DNA of 64,000 bases from Escherichia coli (lineage in GTDB: Bacteria; Pseudomonadota; Gammaproteobacteria; Enterobacterales; Enterobacteriaceae). This document shows positions 53,120 through 53,462 of this stretch, piece after piece. Under the pieces are notes generated by a model, which searched no databases, was not told where the DNA came from, and saw only the letters and a program-made list of their open reading frames with translations. Numbering within the stretch: the first letter of the stretch is position 1; each line of letters begins with the position of its first letter. The stretch lies in assembly GCF_003334785.1 (NCBI RefSeq), contig NZ_QOWV01000003.1, one strand, 5' to 3'. A program made the translations under genes and the position numbers.

Positions 53120-53462
53120 TCTTGTGGTGGATTTAAATACGCATCAGGTATACACCGCAGCGCCTGATGCGACGCTGTTGTGTCTTATCAGGCCTACGAG
53201 TTCAGTGCTGTGTGTAGGTCGGATAAGGCGCTCACGCCGCATCCGACAATAACAGCATTGCCTGATGCGACGCTGTTGTGTCTTATCAGGCCTACGAGTT
53301 CGGTGCTGTGTAGGTCGGATAAGGCGTTCATGCCGCATCCGACAATAACAGCATTGCCTGATGCGACGCTTGCGCGTCTTATCAGGCCTACGAGTTCAGT
53401 GCTGTGTAGGTCGGATAAGGCGTTCACGCCGCATCCGGCAATAACAGCCTTGCCTGACGCAA
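53120..53462. repeat. BIME array: about 3.5 tandem copies of a ~97-bp unit, each holding a REP pair
   Basis: unit gcctgatgcgacgctg..gtcttatcaggcctacgagttc.gtgctgtgtaggtcggataaggcg.tca.gccgcatccg.caataacagc starts at about 53162, 53260 and 53356. Confidence 0.7.

Follow-up and report, generated by a model that had tools for sequence, protein, structure and literature searches.

REP and BIME elements account for about 1% of the Escherichia coli genome. Two types of BIME are distinguished by their REPs, linkers and copy number. BIME-1 elements combine y and z1 REPs with a long L linker, in which an IHF site is often present, and occur in single copy; BIME-2 elements combine y and z2 REPs, have a short S linker with s, l or r flanking linkers, and occur as tandem arrays whose copy number varies between strains (PMC3333891, Ton-Hoang et al., 2012). 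The REP325 array, a BIME-2 of six units, stabilizes the mRNA of the upstream gene yjdM and causes partial termination ahead of yjdN, which depends in part on Rho (bioRxiv 10.64898/2026.03.23.713779). In the same work, expression of REP-containing tandem gene pairs was biased toward the upstream gene, REP effects depended on context, and Rho dependence was not seen for fragments of two to four hairpins (bioRxiv 10.64898/2026.03.23.713779). The Rfam family RF02564 (naRNA4) takes the 'Y, l, Z2' unit of REP325 as its basis (PMC4550694). On DNA, gyrase cleavage is enriched genome-wide in BIME-2 elements, prefers Y REPs and rises with rifampicin or transcription block, while BIME-1 elements are depleted of cleavage sites (Sutormin et al., 2019, NAR 47:1373; PMC6379681). 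The same source lists a holC-pepA element of K-12, 83 bp long, under 'BIMEs2' (sheet DS3, PMC6379681). The boxC or potential intrastrand-triplex (PIT) element is described in PMC4666352.

The array considered here occupies the same intergenic site in another E. coli genome, within a stretch of 64,000 nucleotides (contig NZ_QOWV01000003.1) referred to below as the window. Three genes lie on one strand, the minus strand of the window: pepA, encoding aminopeptidase A (53463-54974, a 503-aa ORF identified through the RefSeq annotation of identical DNA), holC (52666-53109, a 147-aa ORF identified through the RefSeq annotation of matching genomes), and valS (ORF at 49811-52666). An earlier note on this DNA, made from the sequence alone, had placed a tandem array of BIME units between holC and pepA, and the annotation of matching genomes agrees with its naming of both genes. 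The gap between them measures 353 bp (53110-53462). In the direction of transcription pepA is the upstream gene, with its stop codon at 53463-53465. At the other end, the start of valS overlaps the stop of holC by 1 nt (52664-52668), which suggests translational coupling. The last 29 nt before holC (53110-53138, minus strand) are a non-repeated leader that adjoins the holC ATG (53109-53107, minus strand). A leader of about 29-30 nt is common to every E. coli allele, the BIME-free one included, and is near-identical in other Escherichia species, Salmonella and Citrobacter (sequence ...GGTGGATTTAAAT). Elsewhere in the window, Rfam RF02850 (Ysr276, a Yersinia 'antisense' sRNA) gives a full-length match of 175 bits at 54222-54416 (plus strand), antisense within the pepA coding sequence; this match probably reflects coding conservation of pepA and not an independent RNA gene. 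Rfam and ARAGORN give further matches at 7395-7517 (+), 10869-10926 (-), 11006-11048 (-), 36527-36642 (+) and 60389-60473 (+), which correspond to ES239 sRNA, STnc450, ES036 (CssrF), a magnesium riboswitch aptamer and tRNA-Leu (CAA).

The remainder of the gap is filled by the array, which consists of three complete units within 53162-53451 bounded by a partial unit at each end. Each unit comprises a Z2 REP (36 nt), a head-to-head S linker, a Y REP (35 nt) and a tail-to-tail linker, giving the order Z2-Y-Z2-Y-Z2-Y with alternating heads. The earlier note's description of paired REPs thus holds, each unit containing two in opposite orientation. The Z2 REPs carry their GTAG heads on the minus strand and lie at 53162-53197, 53260-53295 and 53356-53391, all three detected as inverted repeats and the last with an intact inner stem (GACGC/GCGTC); their sequence takes the form GCCTGATGCGACGC....GTCTTATCAGGCCTAC. 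The Y REPs carry GTAG on the plus strand and take the form GTAGGTCGGATAAGGCG....GCCGCATCCGACA; they are found at 53214-53248 (an inverted repeat), 53310-53344 and 53406-53440, the last ending in CCGGCA instead of CCGACA. The head is therefore kept in all six REPs. The head-to-head linkers span 53198-53213 (16 nt, with a TG that the other two lack), 53296-53309 (14 nt) and 53392-53405 (14 nt), and the tail-to-tail linkers span 53249-53259 (11 nt, ATAACAGCATT), 53345-53355 (11 nt) and 53441-53451 (ATAACAGCCTT). On the pepA side the array ends in a Z2 stub of 11 nt (GCCTGACGCAA, 53452-53462) that abuts the pepA stop codon. On the holC side it ends in a stub of 23 nt (ACGCATCAGGTATACACCGCAGC, 53139-53161), in which a degenerate REP tail runs into linker-like sequence and which aligns with 'CGCATCCGACA + linker' of the full units (a 70% copy, 53113-53208). 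Reading frames of 46-99 aa occur within the array on both strands and derive from the repeat.

Periodicity was assessed in several ways. The one array called by Tandem Repeats Finder, at 53162-53457, has a period of 96, 3.1 copies, 93% matches and a score of 511, and a repeat search places in-register copies at 53211, 53307 and 53403 with spacings of 98, 96 and 96 bp, the first being longer because of the extra TG in S linker no. 1. When all 353 bp of the gap are compared with themselves at lag 96, identity is 0.64, against a mean of 0.33 and a maximum of at most 0.40 for the best lag in 500 dinucleotide-preserving shuffles. The periodicity on which the earlier note had staked its description is thus present, with some of its figures in need of adjustment. 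The unit is not about 97 bp long; it measures 96 bp, or 98 bp in the first copy, and the three complete units with their two stubs amount to about 3.1-3.2 units instead of 3.5. The extent given, 53120-53462, starts too early, since position 53120 falls inside the holC leader and the repeat begins with the stub at 53139, or with the first REP at 53162.

All six REPs fold as bulged hairpins on either strand, with energies of -14 to -21 kcal/mol; the first Z2 hairpin has -20.2 kcal/mol on the plus strand and -14.3 kcal/mol on the minus strand, and the first Y hairpin -18.8 and -19.2 kcal/mol. Folding of the whole gap lies far below that of shuffled sequences (z = -8.6 on the sense strand, -10.0 on the antisense). 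The gap thus holds six bulged palindromes of 35-36 nt with GTAG, all of them between the pepA stop and the holC start. They fit the definition of a REP as an extragenic, imperfect palindrome of 20-40 nt whose hairpin has a conserved GTAG head at its foot. Across alleles and species, 10 distinct Y and 10 distinct Z2 sequences were found, and variation among them falls almost wholly in the loops. Further Y/Z2 REP clusters are present in the window at 20029-20110, 26270-26371 and 29526-29609. All three Y REPs of the array (53214-53440) have a T in the stem (GGTCGGAT), and Y no. 1 and Y no. 2 also have an A in the opposite arm (ATCCGAC), the change in both arms keeping the pair; the Y REPs at 20029-20062, 26270-26303 and 29576-29609 have C and G at those stem positions. 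Y no. 3 and the K-12 Y carry one of the two changes only, so that the position pairs as G-U on the plus strand and is mismatched (C-A) on the sense strand.

These features identify the array as a BIME-2, a long-described family with a member already catalogued at the same locus in K-12. The classification follows from the combination of y and z2 REPs, short linkers and tandem arrangement, with Y and Z2 assigned by the Rfam naRNA4 model and the K-12 table and not by a printed REP consensus. Inverted Y and Z2 REPs alternate, the linkers are short (14-16 nt and 11 nt) with no long L among them, and the copies are tandem and vary in number between strains (1-3 within E. coli, 1-4 among other Escherichia records). 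The best overall explanation is a three-unit BIME-2 with six complete REP hairpins, together with the gyrase, RNA and recombination mechanism proposed below; its probability is put at about 90%.

Variation within E. coli bears out the earlier note's expectation that copy number differs between strains, with alleles of one, two and three units and a BIME-free allele. The flanks are present in all 5,426 complete E. coli genomes and the BIME in 4,009-4,017 of them. Allele shares were taken from two systematic samples down the ranking, of 39 and 59 chromosomal rows (98 in total). Three units, the window's allele, make up 46-47% (gap of 353 bp, in some genomes 355 bp), two units 19-23% (257 bp), one unit 5-8% (159 bp; K-12 and lab derivatives), and the BIME-free allele 25-26% (132 bp). 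Three units being the most frequent state in the samples, the window carries the commonest allele; none of the 98 systematically sampled rows of complete genomes held an allele of at least four units. By sequence comparison, the K-12 allele combines the Z2 of unit 1 with the Y of unit 3, and the two-unit allele corresponds to units 1 and 3 of the window. Both boundary stubs are identical in all BIME alleles. The comparison thus shows that units have been gained and lost in register between fixed boundaries.

Roughly 1,410 of the 5,426 complete genomes, O111 and O103 strains for example, have an unrelated gap of 132 bp in place of the BIME-2. At the E. coli O111:H8 locus the BIME-free gap lies at 511-642, and the equivalent site in the window is 53139-53456. 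This allele carries a boxC / potential intrastrand-triplex palindrome (CCCTCTCCCTTAGGGAGAGGGTTAGGGTGAGGG), and has in common with the BIME alleles only the holC leader and the ACGCAA beside the pepA stop.

The wider family was surveyed with one genome per species, scanned with a degenerate pattern for the holC start. Synteny of pepA and holC was found in 92 of 99 loci, the 92 being those with enough flanking sequence. Among about 90 Enterobacteriaceae species the gap is between 64 and 455 bp long, with REP heads of the E. coli type at 14 of the loci and boxC-like motifs at 24. The pepA-holC gap is, across these species, a landing site for palindromic repeats. In Escherichia, BIME-2 arrays with both boundary stubs as in the window are found in E. 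albertii (3 units), E. whittamii (2 units) and Escherichia sp. MOD1-EC7003 (1 unit), and a record titled E. coli SCPM-O-B-8794 has four units with a period of 98 in the 455 bp upstream of holC, again with the same boundary stubs. SCPM-O-B-8794 is a separate species-level representative, and its array is longer than any in the 98 sampled E. coli genomes. The gap holds one REP pair in Citrobacter, a single REP in Salmonella diarizonae, and boxC-like palindromes in many other genera. The presence of BIME-2 with the same stubs in several Escherichia indicates that the array is old within the genus and that its size has shifted inside fixed boundaries. Such changes of size fit unequal recombination or slippage between units, and also recombination promoted by TnpA_REP, which has been studied for BIMEs in vitro (Ton-Hoang et al., PMC3333891). 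In the proposed mechanism, any of these three processes would add or remove units in register.

A gyrase connection at this locus has published support. The earlier note had stated that such arrays bind IHF and gyrase, and the gyrase part stands for the K-12 allele: the cleavage data for the locus, which concern the one-unit K-12 allele only, give in vivo site counts of 2, 1, 0 and 2 for Cfx, RifCfx, Micro and Oxo, that is, ciprofloxacin, rifampicin plus ciprofloxacin, microcin B17 and oxolinic acid (PMC6379681). The Y REPs of the array would act on DNA as sites of transcription-independent gyrase binding and cleavage. By extension from the K-12 allele, the three Y REPs in the window could provide up to three gyrase sites. 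The IHF part did not hold, as described below.

At the RNA level, the position of the array points to transcription from pepA. A scan of 52600-53800 detected no sigma-70-like promoter in the gap, and no hairpin followed by a T run, the form of an intrinsic terminator, in the gap or anywhere in 52600-53800 on either strand. The sole sigma-70-like site in 52600-53800 lies inside holC (52764-52793, minus strand), about 100 bp upstream of valS. With pepA, holC and valS on one strand, holC and valS overlapping by 1 nt, and neither promoter nor terminator in the gap, the array is probably transcribed as the 3' region, or tail, of the pepA message. A literature search on the holC promoter and on co-transcription of pepA and holC gave nothing usable. 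One line of a supplementary terminator table lists 'yjgN:pepA:holC:valS' for the terminator after valS (bioRxiv 10.64898/2026.03.23.713779 supplement). That line and the negative consensus scan hint at co-transcription of pepA and holC. In such a transcript the hairpins of the array would block 3'-5' exonucleases, so that pepA mRNA would be stabilized, and would partly attenuate read-through into holC-valS, in part via Rho. By analogy with REP325, then, the array may protect pepA mRNA and dampen read-through into holC-valS. Whatever role the array has at this site, it is dispensable, since the site lacks a BIME in 26% of E. coli genomes.

A different effect on translation was also considered for pepA. 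Liang, Rudd and Deutscher, writing in Mol Cell in 2015, reportedly proposed that ribosomes stall, and tmRNA acts, where a REP lies near a stop codon, with a limit of about 15 nt between stop codon and REP. From the pepA stop codon to the first complete REP there are about 22 nt, more than that limit, and the idea was not adopted.

It is possible, if rather unlikely, that the array is repeated DNA with no locus-specific function, a relic of TnpA_REP (RAYT) spread in a permissive site whose copy number drifts neutrally. This would account for the 26% of complete E. coli genomes in which an unrelated boxC/PIT palindrome replaces the BIME, for alleles of one, two and three units in otherwise near-identical flanks, and for the assorted species-specific palindromes that fill a gap of 64-455 bp in about 90 Enterobacteriaceae species; BIME copy number is, moreover, generally strain-variable (PMC3333891). 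Neutrality sits less easily with the in vivo cleavage of the K-12 allele by gyrase, which makes the element at least biochemically active, with the persistence of the array inside the same boundaries in several Escherichia species, or with REP stems that stay paired (T:A here and C:G in the other Y REPs of the window). It is in any case compatible with identity as a BIME-2 and questions only an adaptive role.

The BIME-2 reading can be extended in the opposite direction, toward regulation by unit number, although this step is speculative and improbable. The number of units (0, 1, 2, 3, rarely 4) would then be a heritable dial that sets the ratio of pepA to holC (and valS) expression by lineage. 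If so, more units would mean more gyrase sites and possibly stronger Rho-dependent attenuation of pepA read-through, giving a lineage-specific ratio with no change to promoter or coding sequence. The modest value of the locus lies in a clean natural allelic series, with zero to three units or a boxC element between identical flanks upstream of the replisome gene holC. The series could be used to test REP arrays as context-dependent terminator-stabilizers and to relate gyrase loading to unit number.

Matches to RF02564 raise the question of whether the units are naRNA4-type sRNA genes, whose Y-Z2 double-hairpin RNAs would bind HU and help condense the nucleoid, as originally proposed for REP325 (PMC4550694). 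Two full-length matches (model positions 1-77) on the plus strand exceed the gathering score of 59.5 bits, one of 73.2 bits at 53217-53292, its first half being Y no. 1, and one of 82.2 bits at 53313-53388, its first half being Y no. 2. REP325 itself scores 95-111 bits, and its matches fall on the transcribed strand; in the pepA-holC array those that pass the threshold run antisense to both genes, and the transcribed (minus) strand reaches 52 bits for naRNA4, below 59.5. The model also matches above threshold at 20032-20110 and 26273-26350, in other BIME-2 elements of the window, and therefore detects Y/Z2 homology and not a specific gene. The plus-strand matches in the array reflect generic homology of this kind and are no sign of sRNA genes. 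The nucleoid-condensing role of naRNA4 is itself now disputed, a 2026 preprint that shares a senior author with the original work having found no measurable nucleoid compaction by REP325/naRNA4. An sRNA function for the units is accordingly very improbable.

Six stable GC-rich hairpins directly after the pepA stop codon could also be taken for an intrinsic (Rho-independent) terminator of pepA. Such terminators combine a hairpin with a T run, and no site of that form was found in 52600-53800; a polyU tract is likewise absent from most REPs (bioRxiv 10.64898/2026.03.23.713779). For holC, moreover, the gap contains no promoter-like site. This interpretation is very improbable.

Equally hard to credit is an IHF-binding BIME-1 (RIB/RIP) element, which the wording of the earlier note would imply. 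The tail-to-tail linker (AATAACAGCATTG) resembles the IHF core WATCAANNNNTTR at 2 mismatches in all three units. Matches at that stringency are near chance, four in the 353-bp gap with about 3.3 expected, and at 0 or 1 mismatch the core has no match in the gap. The gap also holds no Z1-like sequence and no long L linker, and BIME-1 elements are single (PMC3333891). The published table puts the K-12 allele under BIME-2 and not BIME-1. A BIME-1-type element does occur elsewhere in the window: the Y + Z1 pair at 39492-39581 contains the window's sole Z1 (39551-39580) and a head-to-head linker of 25 nt (AAATTCAATCAATTGCAGGAATCAC). That linker has an IHF-like core at 1 mismatch, and the contrast with this real Y + Z1 element speaks against a BIME-1 in the pepA-holC gap.

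A CRISPR array, which regularly spaced palindromic repeats might bring to mind, is excluded, as the earlier note had already concluded: two different palindromes alternate in opposite orientation, and both linkers recur in every unit, leaving no unique spacers.

Set against described systems, the three-unit BIME-2 resembles REP325 of K-12, the yjdM-yjdN array from which naRNA1-6 derive, in being a tandem Y/Z2 array between genes on the same strand and in matching the same Rfam model over its full length. The two differ in size, REP325 having six units of 100 bp and the pepA-holC array three of 96 bp, and both linkers are unrelated in sequence between them. They differ also in orientation: naRNA4 is sense on the transcribed strand in REP325, whereas the pepA-holC array is inverted relative to transcription. 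With inverted orientation and unrelated linkers, the RNA-level effects of the array may differ from those of REP325.

The likeness to BIME-1 / RIB-RIP elements is confined to inverted REP pairs and a Y REP in common; the array lacks their Z1, long L linker and IHF core, and is tandem where they are single. The boxC/PIT element is alike in location, since 26% of E. coli genomes, and many other Enterobacteriaceae, have it at precisely this site, but it is built of unrelated blocks (CCCTCTCCC / GGGAGAGGG / GGGTGAGGG), does not consist of REPs and is absent from the window's gap.

The closest relative is the holC-pepA BIME-2 of K-12, which has the same locus, flanks and stubs, a Z2 identical to Z2 no. 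1 of the window and a Y identical to Y no. 3. K-12 has one unit in a gap of 159 bp, and the window three units in a gap of 353 bp. Relative to K-12, a few diagnostic substitutions mark two of the window's units, and an additional TG is present in one S linker. The BIME-2 of this locus is thus already known, and what separates the window from K-12 is only the number of units, three against one.
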